A program made the position numbers and the translations under genes. Below the pieces are notes generated by a model. That model had not been told where the DNA came from. It did no database searches and saw nothing but the letters and a program-made list of their open reading frames with translations. Of a stretch of DNA of 64,000 bases, positions 1-62,008 are shown piece by piece; position 1 is the stretch's first letter, and each line of letters begins with the position of its first letter. Source of the DNA: a virus; IMG/VR virus record IMGVR_UViG_3300030329_000083, positions 1 through 64,000 of that record, one strand, 5' to 3'.

Positions 1-1584
1 ATAGAAGGAACAGGTAAAACACAAAACACAGTGACCTTTCATCCTGCACTAGTTGCTGCAAAAAAGATGGAAAAGAAGATACACGATCAACTAGAAGAGT
101 CTGGTGCTAATAAACAACTTAGAAGTACAGCTTTTGAAATGTCTTTGTTTGGTACAGGTATTATGAAAGGTCCGTTTGCTATTGACAAAGAGTATCCAAA
201 CTGGAATGACGATGGTGAGTATGATCCTTTAATTAAAACTGTGCCATCTACTAATCATGTTTCTATATGGGACTTCTACCCTGATCCTGACTCACAAAAC
301 ATGGACGAGGTTGAGTTTGTTGTAGAGAGACACAAAATGTCTCGTATGCAAATGAGAGCATTAAAGATGCGTCCTTTCTTCAGATCTGAGTCGGTAGATA
401 GAGCTATAGAACTCGGTCCTGCCTACGAGAAAAAGTACTGGGAAGATGACATGATAGACTACACTACTCAGCAATACATTGATAGATATGAAGTGCTTGA
501 GTTTTGGGGATACGTAGGTAGTTCTACCCTTGAGGAAAATGGTTTAGACATACCTGCTGATTTAAAAGATATGGAGCAACTTAATGTCAATATATGGGTA
601 TGTAATGGAGAAGTATTACGTTTGGTACTCAATCCGTTTAAACCAGTTCGTATACCTTACTATGCCGTACCATATGAGCTTAATCCCTACAGTTTCTTTG
701 GTGTGGGAATTGCTGAGAATATGGACGATACACAGACTTTAATGAATGGTTTTATGCGTATGGCTATTGATAACGCAGCCCTTAGTGGTAACTTAATTAT
801 TGAGGTTGATGAAACTAATCTAGTTCCAGGACAGGATCTATCAGTATATCCAGGAAAGATATTCCGTAGACAAGGTGGCGCACCAGGACAAGCTATATTT
901 GGCACAAAGTTTCCAAACGTAGCAGGAGAGAATATGCAACTGTTTGACAAAGCTAGAGTGCTTGCAGACGAAAGTACAGGCTTTCCAAGTTTTGCTCACG
1001 GACAGACAGGTATACAGGGTGTAGGTAGAACTGCATCAGGTATATCAATGTTAATGTCAGCAGCTAATGGTTCTATCAGAAACGTAGTTAAGAATGTTGA
1101 TGATTATCTGTTAGCACCACTAGGTAAGGCTTTCTTTAGCTTTAATATGCAGTTTGACTATGATAATAGTATTAAAGGTGATTTAGAGGTTAAAGCACAG
1201 GGTACAGAAAGTCTAATGGCTAACGAAGTGCGTAGCCAAAGACTAATGCAGTTCTTACAAGTTGCGTCTAATCCTGCACTAGCACCTTTTGCTAAGATGG
1301 ATTACATCATTAGAGAGATAGCTAAGAGTATGGACTTAGACCCTGACAAAGTAACTAACAGCTTACAGGACGCAGCTATACAAGCTGAGATACTAAAACA
1401 GTTTCAACAACCTGCTCCTCCTCCAGTTCCTCCTGAAGGTATGCCTACTGAGGGTCAACCACAGCCTGAAGCTCCTCCACCTGCAGGAGCTAATGTGCAA
1501 GATACATCAGGTGGTGGCGGTAGTCAAATAGGTGTAGGCACAGCACCGTTACCACAAGAAGAAGGTTTCTCAGGTAATGCCTAA
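1..1584 (+). CDS. Portal protein, copy A (5'-truncated by window edge)
   Basis: Frame open from base 1 (IEGTGKTQNTVTFHPAL) and collinear with the C-terminal part of the full-length 704-aa ORF at 53339, which follows the terminase; position before scaffold/capsid. Confidence 0.85.
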   Translation: MEGTGKTQNTVTFHPALVAAKKMEKKIHDQLEESGANKQLRSTAFEMSLFGTGIMKGPFAIDKEYPNWNDDGEYDPLIKTVPSTNHVSIWDFYPDPDSQNMDEVEFVVERHKMSRMQMRALKMRPFFRSESVDRAIELGPAYEKKYWEDDMIDYTTQQYIDRYEVLEFWGYVGSSTLEENGLDIPADLKDMEQLNVNIWVCNGEVLRLVLNPFKPVRIPYYAVPYELNPYSFFGVGIAENMDDTQTLMNGFMRMAIDNAALSGNLIIEVDETNLVPGQDLSVYPGKIFRRQGGAPGQAIFGTKFPNVAGENMQLFDKARVLADESTGFPSFAHGQTGIQGVGRTASGISMLMSAANGSIRNVVKNVDDYLLAPLGKAFFSFNMQFDYDNSIKGDLEVKAQGTESLMANEVRSQRLMQFLQVASNPALAPFAKMDYIIREIAKSMDLDPDKVTNSLQDAAIQAEILKQFQQPAPPPVPPEGMPTEGQPQPEAPPPAGANVQDTSGGGGSQIGVGTAPLPQEEGFSGNA

Positions 1585-1774
1585 TTTAAAACCCTTAGTT
1601 AATAATAACGAACTCTATGATAATTTTTTAGAAGAGTTGGATCTTCAAATAAGAGTTTACACTAGAGGTTTAGAACAAGCAAATACTTTAGTAGATGTGC
1701 ATAGGCTTCAAGGCAGTATATATGCTTTGCGAAAACTAGAAAAATTAAAGGAACAAGTTAATGGCTCAAAATAA
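1577..1774 (+). CDS. Small conserved head-module protein, copy A
   Basis: 65 aa overlapping the portal stop; 'VDVHRLQGSI.ALR' conserved in copy B (55443-55661). Confidence 0.75.
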   Translation: MPNLKPLVNNNELYDNFLEELDLQIRVYTRGLEQANTLVDVHRLQGSIYALRKLEKLKEQVNGSK

Positions 1775-4637
1775 TACAGCAGAACAAATGGAGATGGCTT
1801 TCATGCAAGAAGGCGGCTTGAAAGATGATGGAGCTGTTACCGATCCTGTAAGTGGCAATGAAGTCCCTAGTGGTAGTATGGATCAAGAAGTAAGAGATGA
1901 TGTCCCTGCTATGTTGAGCGAAGGTGAATACGTTGTACCTGCTGATGTCGTTAGGTTTCACGGAGTTAAACTGTTTGAAGACTTACGCATACAAGCTAAA
2001 ATGGGTATGGCTAAGATGGAAGCTGAAGGACGCATAGGTGGTGAGCCTATAGATGGTGAAGACATGGAGGATGACGATGAGTTACCTTTTGATGTAACAG
2101 AGTTGCGTGTAATAGAAACACCTGTTAGAGAGATGGCTGAAGGTGGAGATGTAGGTGAGGTTGGACCTACGTTTACATATAATCCTAACACACGATACAT
2201 GGAAAGACAAAGAACCACCTCTGGTTTTGAGATGAGAGTTTATGTTGATCCTGCCACAGGTAGACAGATAACTATACCTTTCTTTAATGGGCAACCTATG
2301 TCAACAATACCTCAAGGTTTTGTACTAGCTTCAGATCAAGCTGCAGCACAGAAAACTTTATCTGAACAAGAGATGCAACAGATGCAACAAGATCCTGCAT
2401 CAAAAAGATTCTTCTTACCACCTGACCCTAAAGAAGTTAAGCGAGGCTTTGATGCTTTTACTGCAGAGGATTGGAATAACTACGTAAAACAAGCTGATGG
2501 TCAACTTGCAGCATTTACAGCTAACATACCTATCTTAGGGACGCTACAAAGACTTAGTGAGTCTTCAGCAAAAGCATATGCTGAAAGAGCATTAAAGACA
2601 GGTGTGCATCCTGCTACAAATAAAGCTTTAACTCCACAAGAGGTAACTGCACTAAAAAGTGTTTTAAATAGTTCTATCACAGAAAGAAAGAGTATACTAG
2701 AATCTATAGGTGATTTGTTCAAAGGTGAGCCAGATCAGAACATGTCTCCTAGACCTGACTTTAAACCTATAACGGCTGCACAAATGCCACAAGCAAATAT
2801 AATGACTGAAGAAAGTCCTACTATGAGTGCTATAATGGCAGGATTCAATAAAGACAAAAGTGGTGATACTGTTGGACAACAGTTTGCTAGTAGAGCAGAT
2901 GTGGTAAGCGATGTTACTCCTTTGGCTGCAGGACCAGTTAATATTACTGATCCTACTTTAAGTATTCTTTTAGACGAAGCTAGTGTTTCTAGTTTAGACG
3001 ATATAAAAAATAGTGGTAGCATAGCACGTAGGGAGGCTTTTGATGGAGATTCTGCTCTTAGAACAAATGCAGAAGGTGAAACTATTTTTAAAGCTTATAA
3101 AGACTCAGAGGGTTATTGGACTGTTGGTCCTGGAATATTATTGGGGACAGTAGACAAAAAGGGTAATCAGACAGTATCTGAAGAGGCTATACAAAAAGAT
3201 TACACTGAAGAATTTGTTAAAGATGAATTTGTAAAAAGTTTAAATGAGGCTACAAATTACATTGACAATAAATATAATGCTGATCTTATGCCACCTTTAG
3301 CAAGAGCTACATTGATAAATATGCGTTTTCAATTGGGTAATAGATTTGAAACTTTTACTCAATTAGATAGAGCAATCAAAGAAGGAAACTTTACGGAAGC
3401 TGCAAAACAAGTCTTAGGTAATTATAAAGTAGGAGATAAATTTGCTTTTTCTACTGATTCAGGTGCAGAATCAATAGGTCCAACTTTATATGCAACACAG
3501 ACTACAAATAGAGCTAGAAGACATGCAACTAGATTTGATCTTGTAGCTTCACAGTACGGTAAATTAACACCTGCTACACCACCAAGACCTGATAGATTTG
3601 GAGCAGACGTACCTGCACCACCAAGCTTTATACAAGGAATGGATGCAGTTCCAGAAGGAGGTGCAGCTATACCTTACACAACTGACGCAGCAGGTTTTGC
3701 AGGAGACATACCTCCACCTGTAGCATCACCTGTAGCACCTGTAAGTGGAGGTAGTATACCCACAATGGAATACATAGAGTCCATGTTAAGCGGAGCTAAT
3801 ATAGATACAAGCATTGCTCCTAATGTTAGAGACTTAATCCGTAGACAACGTGGAGTTCCACCTATAGCTACTGAAGGCGGTTTTCCACCAGAGGTTAATA
3901 TACAAGCTCCATCTATTCAAACTGCACCTCAGTTAGGTCAAACATCAAAACCTATTCAAACTGCACCTCAGTTAGGTCAAGCACAAACAGATATAACAAC
4001 TAGTACAAAAGCACCTAAGTTACCAAAAGAACCAAAAATATCTGACTCTCAGTTTAAGTTAGGTCAGGTTTCGCCACCATCTATGTCTTTGGAAGTTCCA
4101 CAACTAGAATTACCAAAATTTGAGTCTCTTCCTAGTGTTGATAAAACAGCTCCAAAATCTATAGAAGATTTTGAGCCATTGGGAGAATCAAAATTACCTC
4201 GTGGTTTTGGACCTACCACTAGAAGAGTATTAGGATCACAAGGCGGTGCTAAACCTGTTGAAAAAGATAAGACTGTATCTGAAACAAAAAAAGATCAAAG
4301 CATAAATAAAAATCCTGAGAATACATCTTTTACATCTGCAGCGTCTAATGATGACATAATACAAAAGACAGCTAGAAAGAGTGATATAGGAGATACTAAT
4401 GTACAAATTAGGTTGGCTAAAATACTCTACGCTAAAAATCAAGCTAAAAACGCAGGAGTAGATATAACATTTAAAGATAGTGACTTTGATAAACAAGGTT
4501 TCTTTAAACCTAAGAGTAAAGAGTTACAAAAGTATAAAGCTAAAGGATTATCAAGTACAGGGTTTGACCCTTTAGCAAATAAAAAAGCTACTGGAGGCTT
4601 AATAGACAGGAGAGCAAAAAAGAAGAAGAAAACCTAA
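1761..4637 (+). CDS. Large internal virion protein with T4-type (GH24) lysozyme domain, copy A
   Basis: N-terminal DPVSGNEVP..DDVPAMLSEGEYVVPADVV domain; YKDSEGYWTVGPG, ATLINMRFQLG and LYATQTTNRARR resemble T4 lysozyme YKDTEGYYTIGIG, ALINMVFQMG, WYNQTPNRAKR. Confidence 0.75.
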   Translation: MAQNNTAEQMEMAFMQEGGLKDDGAVTDPVSGNEVPSGSMDQEVRDDVPAMLSEGEYVVPADVVRFHGVKLFEDLRIQAKMGMAKMEAEGRIGGEPIDGEDMEDDDELPFDVTELRVIETPVREMAEGGDVGEVGPTFTYNPNTRYMERQRTTSGFEMRVYVDPATGRQITIPFFNGQPMSTIPQGFVLASDQAAAQKTLSEQEMQQMQQDPASKRFFLPPDPKEVKRGFDAFTAEDWNNYVKQADGQLAAFTANIPILGTLQRLSESSAKAYAERALKTGVHPATNKALTPQEVTALKSVLNSSITERKSILESIGDLFKGEPDQNMSPRPDFKPITAAQMPQANIMTEESPTMSAIMAGFNKDKSGDTVGQQFASRADVVSDVTPLAAGPVNITDPTLSILLDEASVSSLDDIKNSGSIARREAFDGDSALRTNAEGETIFKAYKDSEGYWTVGPGILLGTVDKKGNQTVSEEAIQKDYTEEFVKDEFVKSLNEATNYIDNKYNADLMPPLARATLINMRFQLGNRFETFTQLDRAIKEGNFTEAAKQVLGNYKVGDKFAFSTDSGAESIGPTLYATQTTNRARRHATRFDLVASQYGKLTPATPPRPDRFGADVPAPPSFIQGMDAVPEGGAAIPYTTDAAGFAGDIPPPVASPVAPVSGGSIPTMEYIESMLSGANIDTSIAPNVRDLIRRQRGVPPIATEGGFPPEVNIQAPSIQTAPQLGQTSKPIQTAPQLGQAQTDITTSTKAPKLPKEPKISDSQFKLGQVSPPSMSLEVPQLELPKFESLPSVDKTAPKSIEDFEPLGESKLPRGFGPTTRRVLGSQGGAKPVEKDKTVSETKKDQSINKNPENTSFTSAASNDDIIQKTARKSDIGDTNVQIRLAKILYAKNQAKNAGVDITFKDSDFDKQGFFKPKSKELQKYKAKGLSSTGFDPLANKKATGGLIDRRAKKKKKT

Positions 4638-4638
4638 A

Positions 4639-4688
4639 GTAGTAGTGAGTACTACCTTATGGCTACTTGACCACTGCGGTCAACCCCA
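4639..4688 (+). promoter_or_regulatory. Two-hairpin leader upstream of the scaffold RBS
   Basis: gtagta/tactac and tgg-ctac-ttgacc/ggtcaa-cc-cca stems; 67 bp (4635-4701) identical to 61057-61123. Confidence 0.6.
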
Positions 4689-4706
4689 ACAAAAGGAGTA
4701 AATAAT

Positions 4707-5615
4707 ATGCCAGAATTAGCAGAAGTAGAACCAGTAAAGAAAGCAGGATTTGTTAGTCCACGCAAAACTAATCAAGAACAGCGTATCGAAAAGGACGAAA
4801 AAGAACTTCAAGAACTTATTGCTAAAGCAAAAGGAGAGAAATCTCAAGAAGGAACTGAAGAACAGCAAAATACAGAATCTGCTCAAACGAGTAAAAAAGA
4901 TGAAGTACAAGAAGAGGCTCTTGGTAAAGAAGAGCAATCTTTTAAAAAGAGATATGGTGACTTACGTAGACATCTATCATCTAAAGAGAAAGAGTGGCAA
5001 TCTCGAATAGAAGCGTTGGAAGGTCAACTAAATAAAGCAGCTAAAAATGAATTAGTGTTGCCAAAGTCTGACGAGGAGATTGATGCTTGGGCTAAACAGT
5101 ATCCTGATGTTGCAGGAATTGTTGAAACCATAGCTGATAAAAAAGCTAAAGAAAGATCTATAGAGTTAGATGAAAGAGTAAAACAAATTGAAGAGATGCG
5201 TTTTACTGCTACTAAAGAAAAGGCTGAAGCAGAGTTAATGAGGCTTCATCCTGACTTTGCTGAAATAAGAGAGTCAGATGACTTTCACGACTGGGCTGAG
5301 TCTCAACCTAAAGTTATACAAGATGCTCTATACGAAAATGCAGATGATGCCAAATCAACGGCTGCTGTCATTGACTTGTATAAACATCACAAAGGAATAA
5401 GTAAACCTAAGAAGACTTCAAGTGATAAAAATGCAGCTACTGCTGTTAATGTTCGCTCTAAGACTTCTCCTGTTTCTGACGATACTAAGAACCAGTGGTC
5501 TGAATCACAAGTTGAGAAGATGACTGATAAAGAGTACGCAAAAAATTCTGAGGCTATAATGGAATCAATTAGAGCAGGAAAGTTTATTTACGATATTAGT
5601 GGTGCTGCACGATAA
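4707..5615 (+). CDS. Capsid scaffolding protein, copy A
   Basis: Acidic, coiled-coil-like 302 aa immediately upstream of the major capsid gene; FKKRYGDLRRH motif; AGGAG RBS. Confidence 0.7.
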   Translation: MPELAEVEPVKKAGFVSPRKTNQEQRIEKDEKELQELIAKAKGEKSQEGTEEQQNTESAQTSKKDEVQEEALGKEEQSFKKRYGDLRRHLSSKEKEWQSRIEALEGQLNKAAKNELVLPKSDEEIDAWAKQYPDVAGIVETIADKKAKERSIELDERVKQIEEMRFTATKEKAEAELMRLHPDFAEIRESDDFHDWAESQPKVIQDALYENADDAKSTAAVIDLYKHHKGISKPKKTSSDKNAATAVNVRSKTSPVSDDTKNQWSESQVEKMTDKEYAKNSEAIMESIRAGKFIYDISGAAR

Positions 5616-5622
5616 AAAAGTG

Positions 5623-5650
5623 TTGACATTGTGTAGTTTATCACTATAAC
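5623..5650 (+). promoter_or_regulatory. sigma70-type promoter for the capsid operon
   Basis: TTGACA-16-TATAAC; conserved in copy B (62009-62036). Confidence 0.7.
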
Positions 5651-5654
5651 TAAT

Positions 5655-5820
5655 AGCATACACCTAATGATGGGTGTGTGCTTTTCAAGCAAACAATACC
5701 CTAAAGCTTACCAAAGTTGTATAAGCCTAGAGGACAGAGCGTAGCGCAACGCTTCAAACTTTACACCTTATTAATACTTTGCCCTTACTGAGTATGTTTA
5801 GCTTATAATCATAAGCCTAA
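5655..5820 (+). ncRNA. Structured cis-regulatory RNA in the major capsid 5' leader (putative)
   Basis: Three stems with compensatory changes relative to copy B (62041-62206). Confidence 0.65.
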
Positions 5821-5842
5821 CTTATTTATAAGGAGGACTATC

Positions 5843-6916
5843 ATGGCTTTTAAAACTGCAGCAGGTTACGGCAATTTACCTAATGGTAATTTCTCGCCAG
5901 TAATCTATTCTAAGCAGGTTCAATTAGCCTTCCGTAAAAATACTGTAGTCGGTTCGATTACCAATAGTGATTACTTTGGTGAGATTTCCGCTATGGGTGA
6001 TACAGTAAGGATCATAAAAGAACCTGAAATCACCGTTAAAGAGTATGCTCGTGGAGCGCAAATCACTCCGCAAGATCTCGATGACGAGGACTTCACACTA
6101 GTTGTGGACAAAGCAAACTACTTTGCTTTTAAAATGGACGATATTGAAGAAGCACATTCTCATGTGAACTTTTCACAGTTAGCTTCTGATCGTGCCGCAT
6201 ATCGGTTAGCCGATCAATATGACCAAGAAGTTCTTGGATACCTCTCAGGCTTTAAGCAATCAAGCATAAGCTCTCTAGCAGGTACAGCAAACGACACTGT
6301 TTCAGGGTCAAAGGCTGTGTCTACTGCAGGGTCTGACGAATTGCTAACAAGCATGAAGTTGAGAAAAGACTCTTTTGGTAACATCACCACATCAAGTGCA
6401 GGTGATCATTCTATCCCACTTGCTCCACGTATGGGCGGTGCAACATCGCAAGCTACTGCGACTGCTACACCATTGCAAGTTATTGCTAGAATGGGCAGAC
6501 TACTTGATACACAGTTTGTGGATACACAAGGTAGATGGTTGGTACTACACCCAACATTCGTTGAAATTCTGAAGGACGAAGACTCTCGTCTTCTAAATGC
6601 AGACTTTGGCGAATCAGGTGGACTACGAACAGGTCTAACTATTGGCAGAATACACGGATTTGATGTGTACATGTCTAATAATCTACCATCTGTAGGTACT
6701 GGTCCAGGAACTTCAGGTTCAGCAAACCAGAACTCAAACTTTGGTGTTATCGTAGCAGGTCATAGTTCAGCAGTTGCGACTGCAGAGCAGATCAACAAAA
6801 CTGAGTCATATCGTGACCCTGACAGCTTTGCTGACATTGTTCGTGGTATGCATTTGTACGGCAGAAAGATTCTCAGACCAGAGGCTCTTGTAACTGCTAA
6901 ATATAACGTAGCGTAG
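5843..6916 (+). CDS. Major capsid protein, copy A
   Basis: 357 aa; NFSPVIYSKQV, GDTVRI, IHGFDVYMSNNLP, RDPDSFADIVRGMHLYGRKILRPEAL typical of HK97-fold (P22/N4 gp56-like) coats; strong AGGAGG RBS. Confidence 0.9.
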   Translation: MAFKTAAGYGNLPNGNFSPVIYSKQVQLAFRKNTVVGSITNSDYFGEISAMGDTVRIIKEPEITVKEYARGAQITPQDLDDEDFTLVVDKANYFAFKMDDIEEAHSHVNFSQLASDRAAYRLADQYDQEVLGYLSGFKQSSISSLAGTANDTVSGSKAVSTAGSDELLTSMKLRKDSFGNITTSSAGDHSIPLAPRMGGATSQATATATPLQVIARMGRLLDTQFVDTQGRWLVLHPTFVEILKDEDSRLLNADFGESGGLRTGLTIGRIHGFDVYMSNNLPSVGTGPGTSGSANQNSNFGVIVAGHSSAVATAEQINKTESYRDPDSFADIVRGMHLYGRKILRPEALVTAKYNVA

Positions 6917-6929
6917 GGAGGGATAAACA

Positions 6930-7460
6930 ATGGCAACTTATGATATGACATCTTCCAGTACTGTTGGTGTTTCTTCTAACTCTATAGCGGCTTTACCTAG
7001 TGAAACAGGTATGGGCGCAATGCGAATGGTTCAAGCTTATTTGGACATTGACGCTTTGGTAGCCGCAGGTTACTCTGGTGCAGACGGTGACGTTTTTCAA
7101 CTACTTGAAATCCCTGCAGGATGCTTAGTGCTATTTGCAGGTGCTGAAGTAGAGAAAGCATTTACTTCTAGCTGTACCTTAGACATGGACTTTGGCGGTG
7201 GTGATGACATCATTGATGGTGCTGACATTACCTCAACTGGGTTCTGTGCTGAAGGTACAAACGGACAGTCAAATGACGTTACTACTGGTGCAGCCTCAAC
7301 ATTTACACAATTTGTATCTACTACTGATACTATTGATTGTACGATTGCAGGTGCTGCTCCTGCTACAGGAAGATTACGAGTGTACGCTTGTTTAATCGAC
7401 TGTAACGATGTAGGTTCAGCAGACAGGGCTACTGACGTAGACCGTGACCAATTAGCTTAA
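6930..7460 (+). CDS. Putative capsid decoration/cement protein, copy A
   Basis: 176 aa directly after the MCP and before a terminator; highly conserved in copy B. Confidence 0.55.
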   Translation: MATYDMTSSSTVGVSSNSIAALPSETGMGAMRMVQAYLDIDALVAAGYSGADGDVFQLLEIPAGCLVLFAGAEVEKAFTSSCTLDMDFGGGDDIIDGADITSTGFCAEGTNGQSNDVTTGAASTFTQFVSTTDTIDCTIAGAAPATGRLRVYACLIDCNDVGSADRATDVDRDQLA

Positions 7461-7470
7461 TTTAACAACT

Positions 7471-7497
7471 GGGAGGGCATTAAGTTGCCCTCCTTTT
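7471..7497 (+). terminator. Rho-independent terminator after capsid genes
   Basis: ggagggca-ttaagt-tgccctcc followed by TTTT; conserved at 63846-63873. Confidence 0.8.
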
Positions 7498-7512
7498 ACT
7501 ATAAGAGATAAT

Positions 7513-8448
7513 ATGTCAGGTACTTTTTTAAGTTTAACAAATACTGTATTAGCAAGATTAAATGAGGTGCAACTAACTGCATCTAATTTTACTTCTGCTA
7601 GAGGAATACAAATACAAGCTCAAAACGCAGTTAATGAAACAATTAGATATATTAATCAAAGAGAATTTAATTATCCATTCAATCATGCAACAGAAACTAA
7701 AACTCTTACAGCAGGAGTTGTAAGATACAGCGTACCGACTAGCACAAAATCTATAGACTATAATACATTTAGATTAGTAAAAGATAATGATTTAGGTACA
7801 AGTGGTGGTAGACTTGGCATCTTAAATTATAATGATTATGTAAATAGTTATATAACACAAGAAGATGAGATTAATTCTACCACTGCTGCAGAGGCAATAG
7901 ACTCATCAGAAACAGAAATAGACTTAACTAGTGCTACAGGATTTGATAGTGCAGGAACAATACACGTAGGTAATGAACAGATTACTTACACAGGTATTAG
8001 CACTAATACACTTACAGGTTGCACAAGAGGTGCGTTTTCTACCACTGCAGCATCACACGATAATGGATCTACAGTAACACAATTCACAGGTGGTGGTATA
8101 CCTAGATTTATAGTTAGAACTGCTGATAATAACTATTTACTATTTCCTTTTCCTAATAAACAATACTCTGTAAAGTTTGATTACTACACATTCCCTACAG
8201 ACTTATCTGCACAAGATGATACAACTTCTATCCCTGCTAGATTTGATCCTGTTATAGTAGATGGTGCAACTGCATTTGTTTATCAGTATAGAGGAGAAAC
8301 ACAACAATATCAACTTAACTTTGCTAGATTTGAACAAGGTATTAAGAATATGCAAACATTACTTGTAAATAAGTTTGACTATGTTAGGTCTACTTACATA
8401 GCTAGAACTCAAAATAACTTTTTAGAAATAACACCAAGGGTAAATTAA
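7513..8448 (+). CDS. Head-tail adaptor / tail tubular A-like protein
   Basis: N-terminal FLSLTNTVLARLNE and position after the capsid genes; contains an inserted 'EQITYTG..TLTGCTRG' structural domain. Confidence 0.6.
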   Translation: MSGTFLSLTNTVLARLNEVQLTASNFTSARGIQIQAQNAVNETIRYINQREFNYPFNHATETKTLTAGVVRYSVPTSTKSIDYNTFRLVKDNDLGTSGGRLGILNYNDYVNSYITQEDEINSTTAAEAIDSSETEIDLTSATGFDSAGTIHVGNEQITYTGISTNTLTGCTRGAFSTTAASHDNGSTVTQFTGGGIPRFIVRTADNNYLLFPFPNKQYSVKFDYYTFPTDLSAQDDTTSIPARFDPVIVDGATAFVYQYRGETQQYQLNFARFEQGIKNMQTLLVNKFDYVRSTYIARTQNNFLEITPRVN

Positions 8449-8449
8449 T

Positions 8450-9961
8450 ATGCCTGACGCTTCTCAAGTACAACCAGTAGCATTTAATTGTAGAGGAGGT
8501 TTAGTATTAAATCGTTCCACTTTTCTTATGGAGGCAGGAGAAGCACTAGAACTAGTAAACTTTGAGCCTGATATTGAAGGTGGTTACAGAAGAATAAATG
8601 GGTTTGTTAAGTATAACACAAATGTAGTCCCACAAACAAGTGCGTCAACAGAAGAAGTATTACTATCCTGCATATTTAATGGCACTATAATTGCAGCTAG
8701 AGGAGAGAAAATATTTTCTGCAGCAGCAGGAAGCGGCTCTTGGACGGAACGAGACACAGGTAGAACAAGTGCAGGTGTATATACCTTTGAGAGATTTAAC
8801 TTTGATGGTAACAACAAACTAATAGTAGCAGACGGAGCAAATGCACCTACAGTGTTTAATACATCATTCGCTGCTACAGACGTAAGCGAAAGCTCTGTAT
8901 CTGGCTCTAAATTTTTAGCTGCATTTAAAAATCATATGTTTTATGCAGGTAAATCTTCTACACCACAGACTGTAGTATTTAGTCAGCCTAACGATGAAGA
9001 TGCTTTTAATACTGGTAGTGGTGCAGGTAGCATAAAAGTTGACGATACTATAACAGGTCTTAAAGTATTCCGTGATAATTTATTTATATTTTGTCAAGAT
9101 AGGATATTTAAATTATCAGGTTCTACTTCAAGCGACTTTGCTATAACACCAGTTACTAGAAACATTGGTTGTGTTAATGGACAAACAATACAAGAATTTG
9201 CAGGTGACTTAATATTCTTAGCACCTGATGGATTAAGAACTGTTGCAGGTACTGCTAGAATTGGTGACGTTGAATTAGGTACAATAAGTACACCAGTACA
9301 ATCTTTATTTAATGATAATATAGCTAACGCAAGTGGTTTTAGGTCAATAGTTATACCTAATAAAACACAATACAGAGTGTTTTTTACAAAATCAGGCGTA
9401 GCACAAACTGTAACAGAAGGAGTTATAACTTCTCTTAGGGGAGATAGTTTTGAGTTTGCTAACTTAAAAGGTATAAGACCTACATCTACAGACACAGTTA
9501 CAAGTGCAACAGAAACTATTATCATACATGGTGGAGAAGGTGGTTATGTATATAGACAAGAGTCAGGTAACGACTTTGATGGCACTGCAATAAATGGTAA
9601 ATATAGAAGTCCAGATTTAACATTTAATGATGCAGGTATACGTAAACACATGCAAAGGGTTTTAGTTAGTTTTAAACCTGAATCATCTATAGACGCAGAT
9701 TTGTTTTTAAGGTATGACTTTGAAGATCCAGATGCACCAAGACCTGCAGCTTACTCTCTTGATGCTGCTGACATTGTGGCGATATATGGAACAGGCACGT
9801 ATGGTACAGCTACTTATGGAGGACAAGCAGAGCCATTGTTAAGACAATCAGTAGAAGGTTCTGGATTTACAGTAGCATTACGAGTAGAAGATGGTGGAGT
9901 AACAGCACCATACTCACTAAAAGGATTTCAGTTAGAATATCAACTAGGAGCTAGAAGATAA
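8450..9961 (+). CDS. Tail nozzle / tubular B-like beta-propeller protein
   Basis: 503 aa, beta-rich, ITGLKVFRDNLFIF and NIGC motifs typical of podovirus DNA-stabilisation/nozzle proteins. Confidence 0.6.
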   Translation: MPDASQVQPVAFNCRGGLVLNRSTFLMEAGEALELVNFEPDIEGGYRRINGFVKYNTNVVPQTSASTEEVLLSCIFNGTIIAARGEKIFSAAAGSGSWTERDTGRTSAGVYTFERFNFDGNNKLIVADGANAPTVFNTSFAATDVSESSVSGSKFLAAFKNHMFYAGKSSTPQTVVFSQPNDEDAFNTGSGAGSIKVDDTITGLKVFRDNLFIFCQDRIFKLSGSTSSDFAITPVTRNIGCVNGQTIQEFAGDLIFLAPDGLRTVAGTARIGDVELGTISTPVQSLFNDNIANASGFRSIVIPNKTQYRVFFTKSGVAQTVTEGVITSLRGDSFEFANLKGIRPTSTDTVTSATETIIIHGGEGGYVYRQESGNDFDGTAINGKYRSPDLTFNDAGIRKHMQRVLVSFKPESSIDADLFLRYDFEDPDAPRPAAYSLDAADIVAIYGTGTYGTATYGGQAEPLLRQSVEGSGFTVALRVEDGGVTAPYSLKGFQLEYQLGARR

Positions 9962-12454
9962 ATGGGAGCAACTTACACAAGACAATCATCATATAGTGAC
10001 GGTGATGTTATCACAGCCGCACACACTAATGACGAGTTTAATCAGTTATTAGCAGCGTTTCAGGCAACTACAGGTCACACACATGATGGCACAGCAAATG
10101 AAGGTGGACCAATTACTAAGCTACTTGGTAACACACTTACGTTTGGTGCAGGTACAGCAGGTACAGATATTACTATCACCTTTGATGGTGAAACTACTGA
10201 TGGTGTTCTCAAGTGGATGGAAGATGAAGACTACTTTGAGTTTTCAGATGATATACTTGTAGCCTCAGATGAAAAGATACAGTTTCGTGATACTGCTATT
10301 ACTATTAACTCTAGCACTGATGGTCAACTAGACTTAGTAGCTGATGGTGCTGTGTCTATTGATGCAGGTACAGACATTATACTAGACGCTGATGGTGCAG
10401 ATGTTTTATTAAAAGATGCAGGTACACAGTATGCATCCTTTACAAATAGTTCAGGTAATCTTGTAATTAAATCTGGTAGCACTACTGCTATGACTTTTGA
10501 CGGTGCTAATGTTACATTCTCAGGAACTGTGACAATAGGTAGTGCAGGTATATCAGAGGCAGAGCTAGAAATACTAGATGGTGCTACTGTAACTACTGAT
10601 GAGTTAAATATACTAGACGGTGTTACAGCTACTACTGCTGAACTTAATATTATGGACGGTGACACTTCAGCTACCTCTACTACAGTAGCTGATGCGGATA
10701 GAGTTGTGTTTAATGACGCAGGAACTATGAAGCAAGTAGCAGTTACTGACTTAGCTGCATACTTTGACGATGAGATAACTGCAATGCCAAACCTAGTCAC
10801 CACTGCTGCAACTACAGTTGGTGCATTAGATAGTGGTTCTATAACAAGTGGCTTTGGTACAATAGACACAGGTTCTTCTACTATAACAACAACAGGTGCT
10901 ATTACAGGTGGTTCTTTAGTAGCAGATAATATAACTATTGATGGCACAGAGATTGATTTATCATCTGGAGACTTGACAATAGATGTTGCAGGTGATATAA
11001 TACTAAACACAGATGATGGTATAGTTTCATTACAAGATGCATCTGCTACATTTGGTTCACTAGAAAACTCATCAGGTAACTTAGTTGTTAAGTCAGGCAC
11101 AACAACAGCCTTGACATTTAGTGGTGCAAATGTTACAATAGCAGGTGACTTAACAATTAGTGGTGATGACCTAACTATGGGTACTAATACTAGTGGTCAC
11201 ATCATGGTAGCAGATGGTACTAACTTTAATCCTGTAGCTGTATCAGGTGATGTAACAATGGCATCAAACGGTGCAGTAACAATAGCAAACGGTGCTGTTG
11301 AAACTGCAATGATAAATGCAAATGTAATTACAGGGCAAACTGCTGAAACATCTCTTGATACATCTAATGATGTCATACTTATACATGATGCTTCTGCTAG
11401 TGCATTAAGAAAGACAACACTTGCATCTATATCTTCTGCTCTTGGTGGTATTACAGATGTAGTTGCAGATACATCACCACAGTTAGGTGGTAACTTAGAT
11501 ACTAACTCGCACAATATACTTATTGATGATGCACACTTTATAGCAGACGAAAATGGTAATGAGCAGATTATCTTTCAAACAACATCATCTGCTGTCAATC
11601 AATTTGATATAACTAATGCTGCAACAGGTAATGCTCCTGAGTTATCTGCAACAGGTGGTGACACAAACATTAGTTTAAAGATAACACCAAAAGGTTCAGG
11701 ACAAGTTTTACTAGATGGTAATGTTGGAGTTGAGTCTGGACTAATTGATTTAAAGAACTCAGGTTCTAGGTCACAAATAAAATTCTACTGTGAGTCTGGT
11801 AATGCTCACGCACAAACATTACAGGCTGCGCCACATTCAGAGGCTGCATCAAACACTTTAACATTACCAAGTACAGGCGGTGACGTTGACTTAGTTTCAA
11901 CAGCTTCTACTGCTACACTAACTAATAAGACACTAACAAGTCCAAAGATAAACGAAGATGTAGCAGTAACAGCCACAGCAACAGAGATAAATCTATTAGA
12001 TGGAGTAACATCTACAACTTCAGAACTTAACATATTAGATGGTGTTACATCAACTGCTTCAGAGTTAAACTTAGTTGACGGTTCATCTGCAGGTACGATA
12101 GTAAATAGTAAAGCAGTTATATACGGTTCTAGTGGTGAAGTAAATGCAACAACATTACAGATAGCAGGAACATCTATTACATCAACTGCTGCTGAATTGA
12201 ATATCTTAGATGGTGTTACCTCAACTGCAGCAGAACTTAATATCTTAGATGGAGTTACATCCACAGCAACAGAACTAAATGTTATGGATGGTGATACGTC
12301 TGCTACATCCACAACGCTTGCAGACGCAGACAGGTTAGTAACAAACGATGCAGGAACAATGAAGCAGGTTGCATTAACAGATGTGAAAACATATTTAACC
12401 AGTGCAGGGTTTACTACAGATGACCCAACGGCACTTGCGATTGCCCTTGGATAG
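9962..12454 (+). CDS. Tail fibre protein
   Basis: GHTHDG N-terminal motif, Thr/Gly/Ser-rich, 14-aa ELNILDGVTST(A) repeats, DTSPQLGGNLD motif, C-terminal ALAIALG. Confidence 0.75.
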   Translation: MGATYTRQSSYSDGDVITAAHTNDEFNQLLAAFQATTGHTHDGTANEGGPITKLLGNTLTFGAGTAGTDITITFDGETTDGVLKWMEDEDYFEFSDDILVASDEKIQFRDTAITINSSTDGQLDLVADGAVSIDAGTDIILDADGADVLLKDAGTQYASFTNSSGNLVIKSGSTTAMTFDGANVTFSGTVTIGSAGISEAELEILDGATVTTDELNILDGVTATTAELNIMDGDTSATSTTVADADRVVFNDAGTMKQVAVTDLAAYFDDEITAMPNLVTTAATTVGALDSGSITSGFGTIDTGSSTITTTGAITGGSLVADNITIDGTEIDLSSGDLTIDVAGDIILNTDDGIVSLQDASATFGSLENSSGNLVVKSGTTTALTFSGANVTIAGDLTISGDDLTMGTNTSGHIMVADGTNFNPVAVSGDVTMASNGAVTIANGAVETAMINANVITGQTAETSLDTSNDVILIHDASASALRKTTLASISSALGGITDVVADTSPQLGGNLDTNSHNILIDDAHFIADENGNEQIIFQTTSSAVNQFDITNAATGNAPELSATGGDTNISLKITPKGSGQVLLDGNVGVESGLIDLKNSGSRSQIKFYCESGNAHAQTLQAAPHSEAASNTLTLPSTGGDVDLVSTASTATLTNKTLTSPKINEDVAVTATATEINLLDGVTSTTSELNILDGVTSTASELNLVDGSSAGTIVNSKAVIYGSSGEVNATTLQIAGTSITSTAAELNILDGVTSTAAELNILDGVTSTATELNVMDGDTSATSTTLADADRLVTNDAGTMKQVALTDVKTYLTSAGFTTDDPTALAIALG

Positions 12455-12467
12455 TTAGGAGAAACAG

Positions 12468-12827
12468 ATGGCAAATACATTTAAAGTGGTGACATTCGCA
12501 GCAGAGCCAAACGCTGCAGGTACACCCTACACAGTTTATACAACACCTTCAAGTACAACAACAGTTGTTATAGGTCTTGTATTGACAAACATACATACTT
12601 CTCAAGTCACAGCAGAAGTAGAGCTTGTAAGTGACACATCAGGAGGAGGCAGAGGAGCTACAAATGGTACAGCCTTTCTAGCCAAAGATGTGCCAATACC
12701 TGTAGGGTCTTCACTAGAATTGCTGTCAGGCGGTAAAGTTATATTAGAAACTACAGACGTACTAAGGATAGACTGTTCAGTAGCAGATAAACTGTCTGGA
12801 GCATTAAGCATCATGGAGATAACATAA
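12468..12827 (+). CDS. Tail-associated protein (MANTFK type)
   Basis: 119 aa following the ALAIALG-ending fibre; RBS AGGAG. Confidence 0.55.
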   Translation: MANTFKVVTFAAEPNAAGTPYTVYTTPSSTTTVVIGLVLTNIHTSQVTAEVELVSDTSGGGRGATNGTAFLAKDVPIPVGSSLELLSGGKVILETTDVLRIDCSVADKLSGALSIMEIT

Positions 12828-12828
12828 T

Positions 12829-13281
12829 ATGCCATATATCGGAGTAGAACCTGCCTCTAACTTTCAAACTGCTCCTGCGGTTGTTAGGTTTAGTGGTGAT
12901 GGTTCAGACACTACATTTGATTTAGGTAGAACGATTGGCTCTGTACAAGACATACTTGTATCTGTAGATGGTGTTGTACAGGACACTGCAGCCTACACTG
13001 TACCTGATGGGCAGACATTAACATTTAGTGCTGCACCTTCTTCTAACTCAGGTAATAATATCTTTGTATACTTTCTAGAGGTAGGTGGAGCTACGATAAC
13101 TCCTGCCGCAGAAAACAAAGGTAACTTTAAGGCAGGTGGTTTGTTTAGAACTAACGCACAATCTTTAACTTCTAATCTTACAATACTAGCTACAGAAAAT
13201 GCAAATGTAACAGGCACACTGTCTATTGCTTCAGGTAGTACACTTACGATTGAATCAGGTGGGAGGCTAGTGGTGCTATGA
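12829..13281 (+). CDS. Tail-fibre-related protein (MPYIG type), heads cassette 1
   Basis: MPYIG start, FSGDGSDTTF..VSVDGVVQ..LTFSAAP beta module. Confidence 0.6.
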   Translation: MPYIGVEPASNFQTAPAVVRFSGDGSDTTFDLGRTIGSVQDILVSVDGVVQDTAAYTVPDGQTLTFSAAPSSNSGNNIFVYFLEVGGATITPAAENKGNFKAGGLFRTNAQSLTSNLTILATENANVTGTLSIASGSTLTIESGGRLVVL

Positions 13282-13721
13282 GTACAGTAAAAGTAGATAC
13301 AATACAGACTACTGGTGGTGTTTCTGAAATAGCCATAGATAAACTCAAGGGTGTATCTTCTGCTAGTTCTATAAGTGTTGTAGGTGAAGGTGGTAGTACT
13401 ACAACTAATCTTCAACAAGGTGTAGCTAAATGTTGGGGTAATGCAGATGGAGATGCAGGAACTGTTGCATTTTTTGATTCATTTAATTTATCAAGTGTTA
13501 CAGACAACAGCACTGGTTACTATACCTTTAGTATAAACAATGACATGGTAAATGATGACTACTCTCTTCAGTTAAGTTCTAATATAGGTGGTGGTTCAGG
13601 AGGTTTTAATGGAGATGGTGGATTATTCACTGGAAGTTACGCATTTTATGCTTTCACTCAAGCAGGTAATTCAAGAGATGTGGCTCGTGCTATGACTACA
13701 GTACACGGAGATTTAGCATGA
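13278..13721 (+). CDS. GDLA-family small tail protein 1
   Basis: GEGGSTTTNLQQGVAKCW ... HGDLA; ATGA overlaps at both ends. Confidence 0.65.
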   Translation: MSTVKVDTIQTTGGVSEIAIDKLKGVSSASSISVVGEGGSTTTNLQQGVAKCWGNADGDAGTVAFFDSFNLSSVTDNSTGYYTFSINNDMVNDDYSLQLSSNIGGGSGGFNGDGGLFTGSYAFYAFTQAGNSRDVARAMTTVHGDLA

Positions 13722-14119
13722 GTACAGTATTACTAAATACACTAACAGGCAAAACCTCCGCAGGGTCTATCGTGGTGACAGGCGAAGGTGGTTCTACGAC
13801 TACAAATATGCAACAAGGTTTGGCAAAAGCACATTGTTACTGGGAAGCAACTTCAACAATAGTTAGAGGATTTAATATAAGCTCTATAGATGATGATGGC
13901 ACAGGAGATTGGGATTTAAATTACACAAATAATTTTAGTGGTACGAAGAACATCGTAACAACTGGAATACAAAATCAATTTACATCATCCAATATGGTTT
14001 TAGCTTTTGTTAGTTCAACAAATAATGCTACTACTGATGTAACAATATTTAATGTTATAACAAGTGGAACTAATCAGGATTCCTCTAATTACGTTACAGT
14101 AGATGGAGATTTAGCATGA
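13718..14119 (+). CDS. GDLA-family small tail protein 2
   Basis: GEGGSTTTNMQQGLAKA ... DGDLA. Confidence 0.65.
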   Translation: MSTVLLNTLTGKTSAGSIVVTGEGGSTTTNMQQGLAKAHCYWEATSTIVRGFNISSIDDDGTGDWDLNYTNNFSGTKNIVTTGIQNQFTSSNMVLAFVSSTNNATTDVTIFNVITSGTNQDSSNYVTVDGDLA

Positions 14120-14517
14120 GCATATCACATGGGACAATAGCATTTGACACGCTCACAACGTCTGACCAAGTAGAAACAGGTACTGAGAAGTCACTAGATA
14201 CAAGTTATGTATATCATGGTACTCCTAAAGCGTGGGCATACTCAGCCTATTCTTCAGGAACTCCACTTGATTCTGCTTCTTTAAATGTGTCTAGTAATAC
14301 GGATACAAACACTGGTGATACAAATCATAATTATACTAACAATATGTCTTCAACTAACTCAGGTGCAACAGCAGCAAATTCATCAACAAGTTCATGTCAG
14401 GGTACTTTTGCATCAGCAGATACAGCCACTACATATGTAAGAACGATAACTCGTAATACAAGTGATGCGTTGGCTGACCACAATAAATCAGCAGCCGTAT
14501 ATGGAGAATTAGCATGA
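14116..14517 (+). CDS. GDLA-family small tail protein 3
   Basis: GTPKAW..SLNVSS..DTNTGD ... YGELA. Confidence 0.65.
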   Translation: MSISHGTIAFDTLTTSDQVETGTEKSLDTSYVYHGTPKAWAYSAYSSGTPLDSASLNVSSNTDTNTGDTNHNYTNNMSSTNSGATAANSSTSSCQGTFASADTATTYVRTITRNTSDALADHNKSAAVYGELA

Positions 14518-15002
14518 TAGAAACACCAGAGTTTCAAGGAACACATTTGTGGGAGCGTCTATGTTGGGCAAAGGAAAAGCTAGAGCCTTACAGGAGCGAG
14601 TACTGCATAGTATGGGAAGACCCTAACGATATGGAAAACCCTGCTAAAGTTACACACCCAGACCCAAACTGGATGGCTTGTGCATTACAGGGTGGGATAC
14701 TACCACCAGTACAATCCTACTGGGAACTAAAGAAAGATGAAGCAAAGCCTGACTTTGTAAAACATACCAGAGGTCCAGAGCTTCTACATAATATGAAACC
14801 TATTGACGCTATGACAGAAGAAGAAGCAATAGAGTATCTTATAATGAAAGACATACCTGAACATGTCTGGAGAGATTGGGATAAATCCAATAAGCCACGA
14901 TTGGTTATCTGCAAAAAAAGTCAACTTCCTGCAACTAGGGAGTGGAGAAATGCGTGGCAAATAAGCGATGAACTCACTGTTGAGACATCAGTAGCCGCAT
15001 AA
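14514..15002 (+). CDS. Tail-fibre-associated protein
   Basis: 162 aa; LPATREWRNAW resembles PSDRHFRGAW of the next gene. Confidence 0.5.
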   Translation: MIETPEFQGTHLWERLCWAKEKLEPYRSEYCIVWEDPNDMENPAKVTHPDPNWMACALQGGILPPVQSYWELKKDEAKPDFVKHTRGPELLHNMKPIDAMTEEEAIEYLIMKDIPEHVWRDWDKSNKPRLVICKKSQLPATREWRNAWQISDELTVETSVAA

Positions 15003-15016
15003 AGGAGTATTAAACT

Positions 15017-15391
15017 ATGGCAACTAAATCTTATATTACGGACATGGATGGCAAGACTGTTGATGCGTCTACTGTAAGCAAACCATCCGACAGGCACTTC
15101 AGAGGAGCATGGAAGCTCTCTGGTAGTACTATTTCTGAAGACATGACTAAAGCTAAAGAAATTTTTAAAGACAAAATTAGGAGTGTACGTCAGCCTCTAC
15201 TGGACGCTGAAGACGTAGTGTACATGAAGGCACTAGAAGCTAGTGACTCATCAGCACAAGCTGCAAGTGTCGCTAAGAAGAAAAAACTTAGAGATGCACC
15301 TGCTGCCTCTGCGATTGGTAGTGCTGACACTATAGCTAAACTAAAAGCAGCTTGGGATACAAGCACATTGGGTACTAGCCCTTACGCATAA
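15017..15391 (+). CDS. Phage tail assembly chaperone-like protein
   Basis: IRSVRQPLL..EDVVYMKALE..KKKLRDAPA pattern of tail-fibre chaperones. Confidence 0.55.
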   Translation: MATKSYITDMDGKTVDASTVSKPSDRHFRGAWKLSGSTISEDMTKAKEIFKDKIRSVRQPLLDAEDVVYMKALEASDSSAQAASVAKKKKLRDAPAASAIGSADTIAKLKAAWDTSTLGTSPYA

Positions 15392-15401
15392 GGATAAGTA
15401 A

Positions 15402-15914
15402 ATGGCACTTAGTAAAATCATAGGTGATGGTCTTGGTGAAGTTAATGAGGCTTCTAATTACGAAATAGATATGTTTAGGCTTACGACTGATGTAACGTCT
15501 GACACATCTGCCATCACTAATTGGGAACGTGTAGATGATGCGTCATTTGCTAAGATAGGTACTGGTATGTCAGAAAGCTCTGGTACTTGGACTTTTCCAA
15601 GAACAGGTTTGTACCGTGTAGATGTTATGGCAGATATTTTTACAACAAATGCTGACCAAGTAACTAAATTAAAACTTAATGTTACAATTAATAACTCTGA
15701 CTATGACCAAGTAGCTCAATGTGGTGAAGGAACTAATTCTTCCGCAGACCTAAATCAACATGCAAGTATGTTTGCGTTAATTAACGTCACTAATACTAGT
15801 AACGTAAAATTTCAATTAGAATCTGCTAGTATGGCTACAAGTGGAATAATAGAGGGTAATACCGCATTTACCCAAACAGGAATTTTAATTGAACGTAAAG
15901 GTCCAAGTCAATGA
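15402..15914 (+). CDS. Tail fibre tip / C1q-like beta protein
   Basis: MALSKI start; SGTWTFPRTGLYRV motif. Confidence 0.5.
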   Translation: MALSKIIGDGLGEVNEASNYEIDMFRLTTDVTSDTSAITNWERVDDASFAKIGTGMSESSGTWTFPRTGLYRVDVMADIFTTNADQVTKLKLNVTINNSDYDQVAQCGEGTNSSADLNQHASMFALINVTNTSNVKFQLESASMATSGIIEGNTAFTQTGILIERKGPSQ

Positions 15915-15924
15915 GGATAAATAA

Positions 15925-16389
15925 ATGCCATATATAGGTAAAGCACCAAAAAACTCAGTCCGTAGTCGCTTCACATATCAAGCGACAGCAGGACAAACAT
16001 CATTTAGTGGCAGTGATAGCAACTCGCTAACACTCAGCTATCCAGATAGTTTGTACATGGACGTTTATCAAAATGGAGTGATGCTCAAGGCAGGTACAGA
16101 CTATACCGCTACGACAGGAACAACAGTAGTGCTAGTTAGTTCTGCATCAGCTAATGACGTAGTTGAGATGGTAGTCTATGATGTGTTTGACGTAGCCGAT
16201 AGCTACACTAAGACACAGGCAGATACACGTTATCCATTCTTAGGTAACAATTCAATCATTAGAACTAATGGTGCTACAGTAGAAACAGATATAAGTATAG
16301 ATAGCAGTACAAATGGATTATCAGCAGGACCAATCACTATTGATTCTTCTAGCACTGTTACTGTTGCAGGACACTGGAGTATAGTATGA
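15925..16389 (+). CDS. Tail-fibre-related protein (MPYIG type), heads cassette 2
   Basis: MPYIG start, ATAGQTSF..DVYQNGV..DYTAT module, C-terminal SAGPITI. Confidence 0.6.
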   Translation: MPYIGKAPKNSVRSRFTYQATAGQTSFSGSDSNSLTLSYPDSLYMDVYQNGVMLKAGTDYTATTGTTVVLVSSASANDVVEMVVYDVFDVADSYTKTQADTRYPFLGNNSIIRTNGATVETDISIDSSTNGLSAGPITIDSSSTVTVAGHWSIV

Positions 16390-16787
16390 CAAGTAAGCTA
16401 GTCTTAGACAATATAGCAGGAAGAACTACAGCAGGTAGTATAACTATTGTTGGAGAAGGCAATAGTACAACAACTAATTTACAACAAGGCTTGGCTAAAG
16501 CGTGGGCAGGTGGTGCTGATGATGGCACTACAATTAATGACAGTTTTAACGTAACAAGTAGGACAGACGAAGGCACAGGAAACTATGACTACACTGTAAC
16601 AAACGCTTTTTCTGCTCAAATAGATGACGGTGGAGTAGGAGGAATGTGTTTTGGTGGTGCAAGAGTTTGTAGAGGAGCTAGTGGAGCTACTACTACTAGC
16701 GTTATTGATATAGTAACAAACACTTCTTCTAGTGGTTCTGCTGTAGATTCAGTACATGGGTTTACGATACACGGAGATTTAGCATAA
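16386..16787 (+). CDS. GDLA-family small tail protein 4
   Basis: GEGNSTTTNLQQGLAKAW ... HGDLA. Confidence 0.65.
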   Translation: MTSKLVLDNIAGRTTAGSITIVGEGNSTTTNLQQGLAKAWAGGADDGTTINDSFNVTSRTDEGTGNYDYTVTNAFSAQIDDGGVGGMCFGGARVCRGASGATTTSVIDIVTNTSSSGSAVDSVHGFTIHGDLA

Positions 16788-17269
16788 TGGTTAGTGAACT
16801 AAGAGTAGACAAAATACATAACGAAGGTGGAGACAACGATAGCGGAATTGACCTCTCAACCAATGACCAGATAGTTCTCAAGACTGCTAACACTACTCGC
16901 CTGACTATGAACGCTACAGGTCAGACTGAGATTGTTGGTGAAGGTGGTAGCGTTATGACTAATCTACAAAACGGTTTATGTAAGGCTTGGGTAAATGCAG
17001 ATAATGACGCTAGTAGAAATGATAGTTTTAATTTTGATGGTGAGACAGACCACGGAACAGGAGACTATTCATATGATTTAATCGCTCATATGTCAGCTAC
17101 TAACTCATACTCTCAATCAGGAATAGCTAGAACTAGTGTAGATGGTCGAATTATAACTAGAAATACTACTAGAGATACAGCAGGTGTAGTGGCAGTTGAG
17201 TGTTCTGATGATGGTGGAACTTTAACTGATATACATCACGATATATTCATTGTGGGAGATTTGGCATAA
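16787..17269 (+). CDS. GDLA-family small tail protein 5
   Basis: GEGGSVMTNLQNGLCKAW ... VGDLA. Confidence 0.65.
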   Translation: MVSELRVDKIHNEGGDNDSGIDLSTNDQIVLKTANTTRLTMNATGQTEIVGEGGSVMTNLQNGLCKAWVNADNDASRNDSFNFDGETDHGTGDYSYDLIAHMSATNSYSQSGIARTSVDGRIITRNTTRDTAGVVAVECSDDGGTLTDIHHDIFIVGDLA

Positions 17270-44878: not shown

Positions 44879-44995
44879 CATCCCATCCCATTACTTTTCC
44901 CATCCCATCTAAAACCTCCCATCCCATCCCATGATGACCGTAACTCATCCGATCCCATCTAAAACCTCCCATCCCATCCCATCTTGATGACCGTA
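44879..44995. repeat. (ATCCC)n array including a 50-bp-period direct repeat
   Basis: atcccatctaaaacctcccatcccatcccat(ctt)gatgaccgta at 44902-44942 and 44952-44995, plus flanking atccc units. Confidence 0.9.
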
Positions 44996-61059: not shown

Positions 61060-61128
61060 AGTAGTAGTGAGTACTACCTTATGGCTACTTGACCACTGCG
61101 GTCAACCCCAACAAAAGGAGTAATTAAA

Positions 61129-62001: not shown

Positions 62002-62008
62002 AAAACTA

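Follow-up and report, generated by a model that had tools for sequence, protein, structure and literature searches.

Why should the leader of a phage head gene be identical in two genome copies whose genes have diverged around it? The question arises from a 64,000-nucleotide (nt) stretch of viral DNA, called the window below, which is the first 64 kb of the 73,624-base IMG/VR virus record IMGVR_UViG_3300030329_000083. Just upstream of a putative scaffold gene (4707-5615, + strand), a run of 67 base pairs (bp) recurs unchanged in a second, divergent copy of the locus. Within this run we identified a small RNA module in which helices that covary among relatives surround a fixed asymmetric internal loop. 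We describe the module and its distribution, the origin of the 67-bp identity, the related loop in the leader of the following P22-like coat gene, and the functions that the module may serve.

A conserved RNA module in the scaffold leader

In the window the module occupies 4660-4688 (+ strand) and consists of a clamp (UGG/CCA, 4660-4662/4686-4688), an asymmetric internal loop (CUAC/CC, 4663-4666/4684-4685) and a hairpin (UUGACC-ACUGC-GGUCAA, 4667-4683). The Shine-Dalgarno (SD) sequence AAGGAG (4693-4698) starts 5 nt past the module's end and is followed by the ATG at 4707. The second genome copy carries the same module at 61082-61110 (+ strand), ahead of the ATG at 61129.

To define the module, we read the DNA upstream of the start codon in 80 viral-contig loci with a scaffold homologue; many contigs were near-identical, and distinct sequences were counted. 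In nearly all 80 loci, GGCUAC and CCCCA flank a lineage-variable helix 2-10 nt upstream of the SD sequence. Two forms were found, and the module measures 29-45 nt. The single form, which is that of the window, reads (U/A)GG-CUAC-helix-loop-helix-CC-CCA. The double form reads UGGCUAC-N5-CCCCA-linker-UGGCUAC-N5'-CCCCA, in which N5 and N5' are complementary. They form one 5-bp helix with an identical internal loop on either side, and a second small clamp (CC/GG) closes the linker. From these pairings, the double form is predicted to be a pseudo-two-fold RNA.

The helices covary in both forms. Among 25 distinct double-form sequences, 90.9% of cells were paired compared to 82.3% in shuffles, none of 500 reaching this value. 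Both partners had changed in 7 of 11 pairs, and all five pairs of the central helix covaried; the clamp pair was G-C in 19 sequences, A-U in five and G-U in one. When 66 distinct double-form sequences were compared, they contained 15 central helices, 10 of them fully paired and five with four of the five pairs. The second most common, UCAUC/GGUGG (16 sequences), includes two G-U pairs, which would be C-A on the other strand, and the structure is therefore specific to the sense strand. For the single form, 19 sequences (nine from cultured phages) were 87.5% paired compared to 62.9% in shuffles and showed double changes in 7 of 8 pairs, while sliding the 3' partner by one column left pairing at only 49% or 37%. 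The loop behaves differently from the helices: whereas each letter of the helices changes, its letters (5' C-N-A-C, 3' C-C) show little or no variation, and in both forms the columns G, C, A, C and CCC are invariant alongside the covarying helices. Because the helices covary, the G-U pairs are strand-specific and the loop letters are fixed, comparison of the relatives identifies the module as a conserved RNA structure. In CRP-738 (L341) and Vibrio phage CHOED (L345), AUAC/AC replaces CUAC/CC; here the first letters of both loop strands change together, which, in two cases only, hints at a non-canonical contact across the loop.

The initial annotation had proposed a leader fold with two elements, of which covariation bears out only the second, the stem with the CUAC/CC loop at 4660-4688. 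The first, a GUAGUA-GUGAG-UACUAC hairpin (4639-4655, + strand, read by eye), is present directly past the stop codon of the upstream gene. A hairpin just past this stop is common in relatives, and its sequence is not conserved among close relatives. In loci such as L024, L056 and L064, a covarying hairpin spans the stop codon itself; the strands of this stop-codon hairpin read GUGGAUUA...UAAUCCAC in one version and GUGGGUUA...UAACCCAC in another, and CACAAUAUAA and then the module lie downstream. The hairpin in the window seems to be the counterpart of this element. Single-sequence folding of 4630-4715 did not single out the module fold (z = -1.68), and the minimum-energy fold of the interval pairs AAGUAGU with GCUACUU instead.

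We searched for the module with covariance models of the double form (R1) and the single form (R2). In the 80 loci (418 kb, both strands), R1 gave 72 matches at an expectation value (E) of at most 1, all on the + strand, directly upstream of the scaffold ATG and one per locus. R2 added five loci (L023, L078, L079, L082 and L085), bringing the module to 77 of the 78 HMO-2011-type loci with upstream DNA; the remaining three loci are two that lack upstream DNA and L072, in which the 3' half of the motif is missing. Its position is also unique within genomes. When the window was searched without filters, the two scaffold leaders alone stood out (R1, E = 1e-3, next 0.22; R2, E = 3.5e-9, next 0.068), and in five complete cultured-phage genomes the best R2 match was the scaffold leader every time. 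Two secondary R2 matches that we inspected in complete genomes were antisense inside coding regions.

The exact double-form pattern occurs in at least 120 viral stretches. Among the 121 viral matches listed, N5 is fully complementary in 103, and a scaffold homologue begins 12-22 nt past the pattern's last C in 110; the other 11 comprise three at contig ends and eight non-complementary coding repeats. As a control, 596 Gb of bacterial genomes yielded 147 matches to the pattern, mostly G+C-rich coding repeats, with two fully complementary. One of these two matches, on a marine contig, has the entire motif together with an SD sequence and ATG and is probably phage DNA.

A variant of the module, GAG-CUAC-CCUUA-loop-UAAGG-CA-CUC, marks a second clade, the HTVC033P-like pelagiphages (at least 595 relatives). 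We found it in 74 of 80 loci, and five of the six misses have no upstream DNA; one lineage of this type carries AAG...CUU, a compensatory change of the clamp. The initial annotation had left it to be seen whether other relatives share the loop, and in both clades it is kept with covarying helices. Conservation extends over considerable protein divergence: the module persists, with other helices, in relatives whose proteins are 46-77% identical, and it is kept in cultured phages at identities down to 30-36%. P22 apart, it was recognized by eye in 16 of 18 cultured relatives. HMO-2011, CRP-1, CRP-3, CRP-212 and CRP-345 have the double form and phiM6 a double-like one; CRP-2, CRP-9, CRP-13, CRP-207, CRP-235 and CRP-603 have the single form; HTVC103P and HTVC115P have two modules in tandem; and Slicky01 has a reduced look-alike only. 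In P22 we saw no module by eye and obtained no R1 or R2 match. Carriers infect SAR116, Roseobacter, Pelagibacter, Sinorhizobium and Vibrio, and the phage group numbers at least several hundred IMG/VR contigs. A search of viral contigs with Vibrio phage CHOED matched only itself.

The 67-bp identity between two phage variants

The identical run extends from 4635 to 4701 (+ strand), matching 61057-61123. It begins at the TAA stop codon of the upstream gene, passes through the SD sequence and ends five bases short of the ATG. Both direct reading and a count of BLAST runs agree with the initial annotation on its extent. It is the longest of 793 identical runs (BLAST; 5,072 aligned columns, 77% identity) and is followed by runs of 61 (at 7134, coding), 47, 45 (at 5777, in the capsid leader) and 44, so that it forms the top of a tail rather than a lone outlier. 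The divergence of the surrounding genes is equally clear. Third-codon identity between the copies is 54% in scaffold, 51% in capsid and 61% in portal; noncoding identity is 67 of 69 positions in the scaffold leader, 86% in the capsid leader and 71% in the spacer downstream of portal. Given third-codon identities of only 51-61%, the match in the leader is not due to chance.

The layout of the record shows where the two copies come from. Positions 1-7498 are collinear with 53885-63874 (77-79% identity), and the remaining part of the record, 64001-73624, aligns collinearly with 7512-16144 of the window (74-94% identity). Judged by this collinearity, two divergent variants of one phage type together make up the record, which amounts to about 1.3 genome lengths, and the leaders are homologous sites, one in each variant. 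As the variants are 74-94% alike and joined head to tail, the join does not look like a true terminal repeat; a chimeric assembly or a mixed concatemer would explain it better.

This layout also bears on whether the 67-bp identity is a mere footprint of recent recombination, assembler joining or a DNA-level site, with no meaning at the RNA level. The upstream hairpin, the hairpin loop ACUGC and the spacer all vary among other close relatives, yet are identical between the two copies; perfect identity at such structure-neutral positions suggests a recent exchange of the segment. The gene ending at the run is also of very different length in the two variants, as at a mosaic joint: it encodes a lysozyme-domain protein of 958 amino acids (aa) at 1761-4637 and one of 1,809 aa at 55630-61059, and a record of 1.3 genome lengths from two variants would accommodate such a history. 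An exchange accounts for the extra identity; it does not account for a motif whose helices differ among relatives. A promoter in the DNA is ruled out as the source of the motif by covariation, by the G-U pairs, which confine the structure to one strand, and by the lack of any flagged sigma-70-like site (-35 and -10 elements 16-18 nt apart) on the + strand across 4300-6000. Thus, covariation refutes the footprint as a full explanation, and we consider it very unlikely as a complete account, while recent recombination, which the initial annotation had named as an alternative, stands in part as the origin of the perfect identity.

One loop of the same kind in the capsid leader

The leader of the major head protein, a P22-like coat gene (5843-6916), spans 5616-5842 in one variant and 62002-62229 in the other, and is 215-333 nt long in 61 distinct relatives. 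The initial annotation had found loops like that of the scaffold leader twice here. One site is present in both copies and in relatives. In copy 1, its 5' strand is AG-CUUAC-CAAAGU (5705-5717, + strand) and its 3' strand ACUUUG-CC-CU (5776-5785, + strand), enclosing about 58 nt. In copy 2, the strands are AG-CUUAC-CAAAGC (62091-62103, + strand) and GCUUUG-CC-CU (62162-62171, + strand), so that a U-to-C change at 62103 is compensated by an A-to-G change opposite. The other site, at 5771-5819, is absent from copy 2, and we counted it as chance.

To examine the relatives, we used a descriptor that required, in order, two outer pairs, a 5' loop of 4-5 nt with YAC at its end, a helix, CC and again two outer pairs, over a span of 40-110. 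With a helix of at least four pairs, it matched 37 of 63 distinct capsid leaders, compared to a mean of 6.9 and a maximum of 15 in 60 dinucleotide shuffles; with at least three pairs, it matched 44 of 63, compared to a mean of 16.0 and a maximum of 22. The matches share one homologous position, span about 70 nt and contain many different covarying helices. A first, loose descriptor had been useless, giving 117 matches on the + strand of the window. By these comparisons, the same kind of loop marks both head-gene leaders, once each in this phage. R1 and R2 found nothing convincing in capsid leaders (10.5 bits and E = 0.93 at 5797-5821 in the window; E = 0.03-0.09 in three relatives), because the module there is long-range, enclosing about 70 nt, which such models penalize. 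RNAalifold returned 0 pairs on a MAFFT alignment of 24 capsid leaders, an alignment that was too poor.

The capsid leader has further features of its own. A sigma-70-like promoter (TTGACA-16 nt-TATAAC, 5623-5650, + strand) is kept in 24 of 24 aligned relatives, where the spacing is 16 or 17 nt. It is followed by a strong 5' hairpin and UUUU (5656-5685), then by the domain that the YAC/CC loop closes and by an inner hairpin with a palindromic loop (AGCGCA in the window, GGCC-type in relatives). In the minimum-energy fold, the last hairpin of the leader pairs with the SD sequence. Metatranscriptome contigs (four runs from four studies) cover only the coding part of capsid, 5839-6300, and neither of the leaders.

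Elsewhere in the record, the portal gene lies at 1-1584. A 65-aa gene that follows it (1577-1774) was dropped as a candidate binder of the module; its product is not basic and belongs to no family. The lysozyme-domain proteins of the two variants are similar in patches only. Downstream of the tail genes, about ten successive small genes (119-170 aa) at 12829-17700 form a tandem paralogue family, with a 71-nt stretch of 62-76% identity in at least five of them. The gene at 9962-12454 (830 aa) has a 39-nt period, a 13-residue repeat, seven times at 10586-12312, and two CCCATC-rich 50-nt tandem units lie among small minus-strand genes at 44888-44987.

What might read the module

The module does not belong to a catalogued class. 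Rfam 15 gave 0 matches at the gathering threshold in the whole window and, at E ≤ 10, five chance-level rows in 4500-6000, none on the module; from search results, we found no description of the motif in the literature on HMO-2011, pelagiphages or scaffolding-protein control. An intrinsic terminator, for which a run of U behind a G+C-rich hairpin would be expected, does not fit: the module is followed by CCCCAACAAAAGGAG, and a scan shows no terminator at 4635-4706. Nor does an RNase III site, for which at least 20 bp of double-stranded RNA would be expected; the single form has eight pairs and the double form 11. The intergenic hairpins with internal loops between late genes that serve T7 as RNase III R sites are similar in layout, whereas our module has only 7-11 pairs and conserved loop letters, which RNase III is not known to need. 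A small-molecule riboswitch appears extremely unlikely. A hairpin and an A-rich tail beside the SD sequence resemble the layout of the smallest riboswitches, but the Rfam result at E ≤ 10 speaks against it, the genes served are structural rather than metabolic, and each module has only about six unpaired conserved letters.

Features of a translational operator are present. The module ends 11-21 nt before the start codon, within the footprint of the ribosome, and holds conserved unpaired letters in a conserved fold. In 111 instances of the exact double-form pattern, the ATG comes 12-22 nt past its last C. Phage translational operators include the MS2 and PP7 coat-replicase hairpins and those of T4 gene 32, regA and gene 43. 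Like these, the module is a short structured RNA at or near the ribosome-binding site with fixed unpaired letters and free helix letters; it differs in the place of these fixed letters, which belong to an asymmetric internal loop next to the hairpin and not to a tip or bulge, and in the pseudo-dyad that relates the two modules found in many carriers. Dimeric or ribosomal proteins recognize the thrS operator and the S8/spc operator at internal loops; the module would share with them asymmetric internal loops as protein sites and a two-fold layout for a dimer. We know of no sequence likeness between the module and either operator, and unlike them, it has no host copy that we could find in bacterial genomes. 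As an RNA motif the module is new, but its general kind is known.

From the fixed loop letters, the free helices, the position in the ribosome footprint, the two-fold layout and the repeat in the partner leader, we infer a trans-acting reader: a protein that binds the loop and, by binding, represses translation. On this evidence, we see an even chance that the module is an operator through which such a reader tunes translation of scaffold and capsid. A reader bound to the module would overlap the ribosome landing site and compete with the 30S subunit, and might thereby adjust the output of two proteins needed in hundreds of copies. The pseudo-two-fold layout of the double form is that expected for a protein dimer, and the reader would most likely be a dimeric phage protein. 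As the initial annotation had envisaged, it is reasonable to suppose that a single RNA-binding factor reads both leaders and sets the scaffold:capsid stoichiometry.

By analogy with P22, the first candidate would be the scaffold protein itself. The 1985 papers of Casjens and Adams and of Wyckoff and Casjens reportedly concern post-transcriptional or translational control by free P22 scaffolding protein. Our scaffold gene resembles P22 gene 8 in lying just before a P22-like coat gene and would work alike if the scaffold protein were the reader. For P22, no RNA operator is known to have been defined. A statement in a more recent preprint has the N terminus of the P22 protein as the part that "is implicated in translational autoregulation" (bioRxiv 10.1101/2022.12.13.520362). 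We called the 302-aa product (phrog_13678) a scaffold from its position and its predicted all-helical shape (AlphaFold, mean predicted local distance difference test score 74). Its sequence includes an invariant basic patch, FKKRYGDLRRH. Its tblastn matches are "hypothetical proteins", always just before a P22-like coat gene, in Roseobacter CRP phages, Puniceispirillum phage HMO-2011, pelagiphages, Sinorhizobium/Rhizobium phages and Vibrio phage CHOED.

Several observations weigh against this scheme. The 302-aa protein has no Pfam match and no PHROGs name, no PDB sequence match and no Foldseek match at E ≤ 3, and hhalign gave a probability of 0.2% against P22 gp8. P22 itself differs in having a 13-nt gap between portal and scaffold, no R1 or R2 match and no protein sequence likeness; the analogy is therefore one of function rather than of homology. 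In 13 of the 19 single-form sequences the outermost clamp pair does not form, which leaves two pairs as the reliable clamp, and kinship among lineages means that the shuffle controls overstate independence. In four loci (L025, L043, L044 and L083), a perfect inserted TTGACT-17 nt-TATAAT abuts the first GGCUAC, and transcripts from it would start in or just past that GGCUAC, without the outer clamp. Finally, the fixed internal loop could be a self-contained RNA fold and not a protein site. The specific form of the proposal, in which free scaffold dimers would use a pseudo-two-fold CNAC/CC operator to halt translation of their own message and also to contact that of capsid, strikes us as unlikely.

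A self-contained fold could act without any reader: it might be a plug that keeps the SD sequence unpaired, or it might shield the scaffold and capsid messages or direct their processing and so determine how stable they are. The SD sequence is never paired with the module, which sits between the upstream hairpin and an A-rich spacer, and the strong 5' hairpin that opens the capsid leader indicates that these phages use stability elements. A plug or stabilizer requires pairing, yet it is the unpaired C, A, C and CC that are fixed while the helix letters vary, and the pseudo-two-fold double form would have no obvious use; we regard this explanation as improbable. It is quite improbable that the ribosome itself reads the module, through a ribosomal protein or ribosomal RNA contact, as an enhancer of the two most heavily made late proteins. 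Such an enhancer would explain why the module is confined to the leaders of the two highest-copy proteins and adjoins the SD sequence, and a universal reader fits the wide host range of the carriers. However, the 596 Gb of bacterial genomes yielded no host counterpart of the double form, and the loop in the capsid leader lies at least about 60 nt from the SD sequence. GGCUACC may resemble a stretch of 16S rRNA, and UAUGG/CCUAA near the module a tetraloop receptor; neither resemblance enters our argument.

How tailed phages match scaffold to coat output is a long-standing question. The module is a tiny, sharply defined site backed by covariation, and its cultured carriers on Roseobacter, SAR116, Pelagibacter and S. 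meliloti make binding and reporter tests straightforward. As an operator, its fixed asymmetric loop and two-fold double form would represent a new small RNA-recognition module. If scaffold dimers were found to bind it, the module would supply, at the RNA level, the half still missing from the scaffold self-control that has been known from P22 genetics since 1985, and would do so in phages that are among the most abundant in the ocean as well as in a phage of the tractable host Sinorhizobium meliloti 1021.

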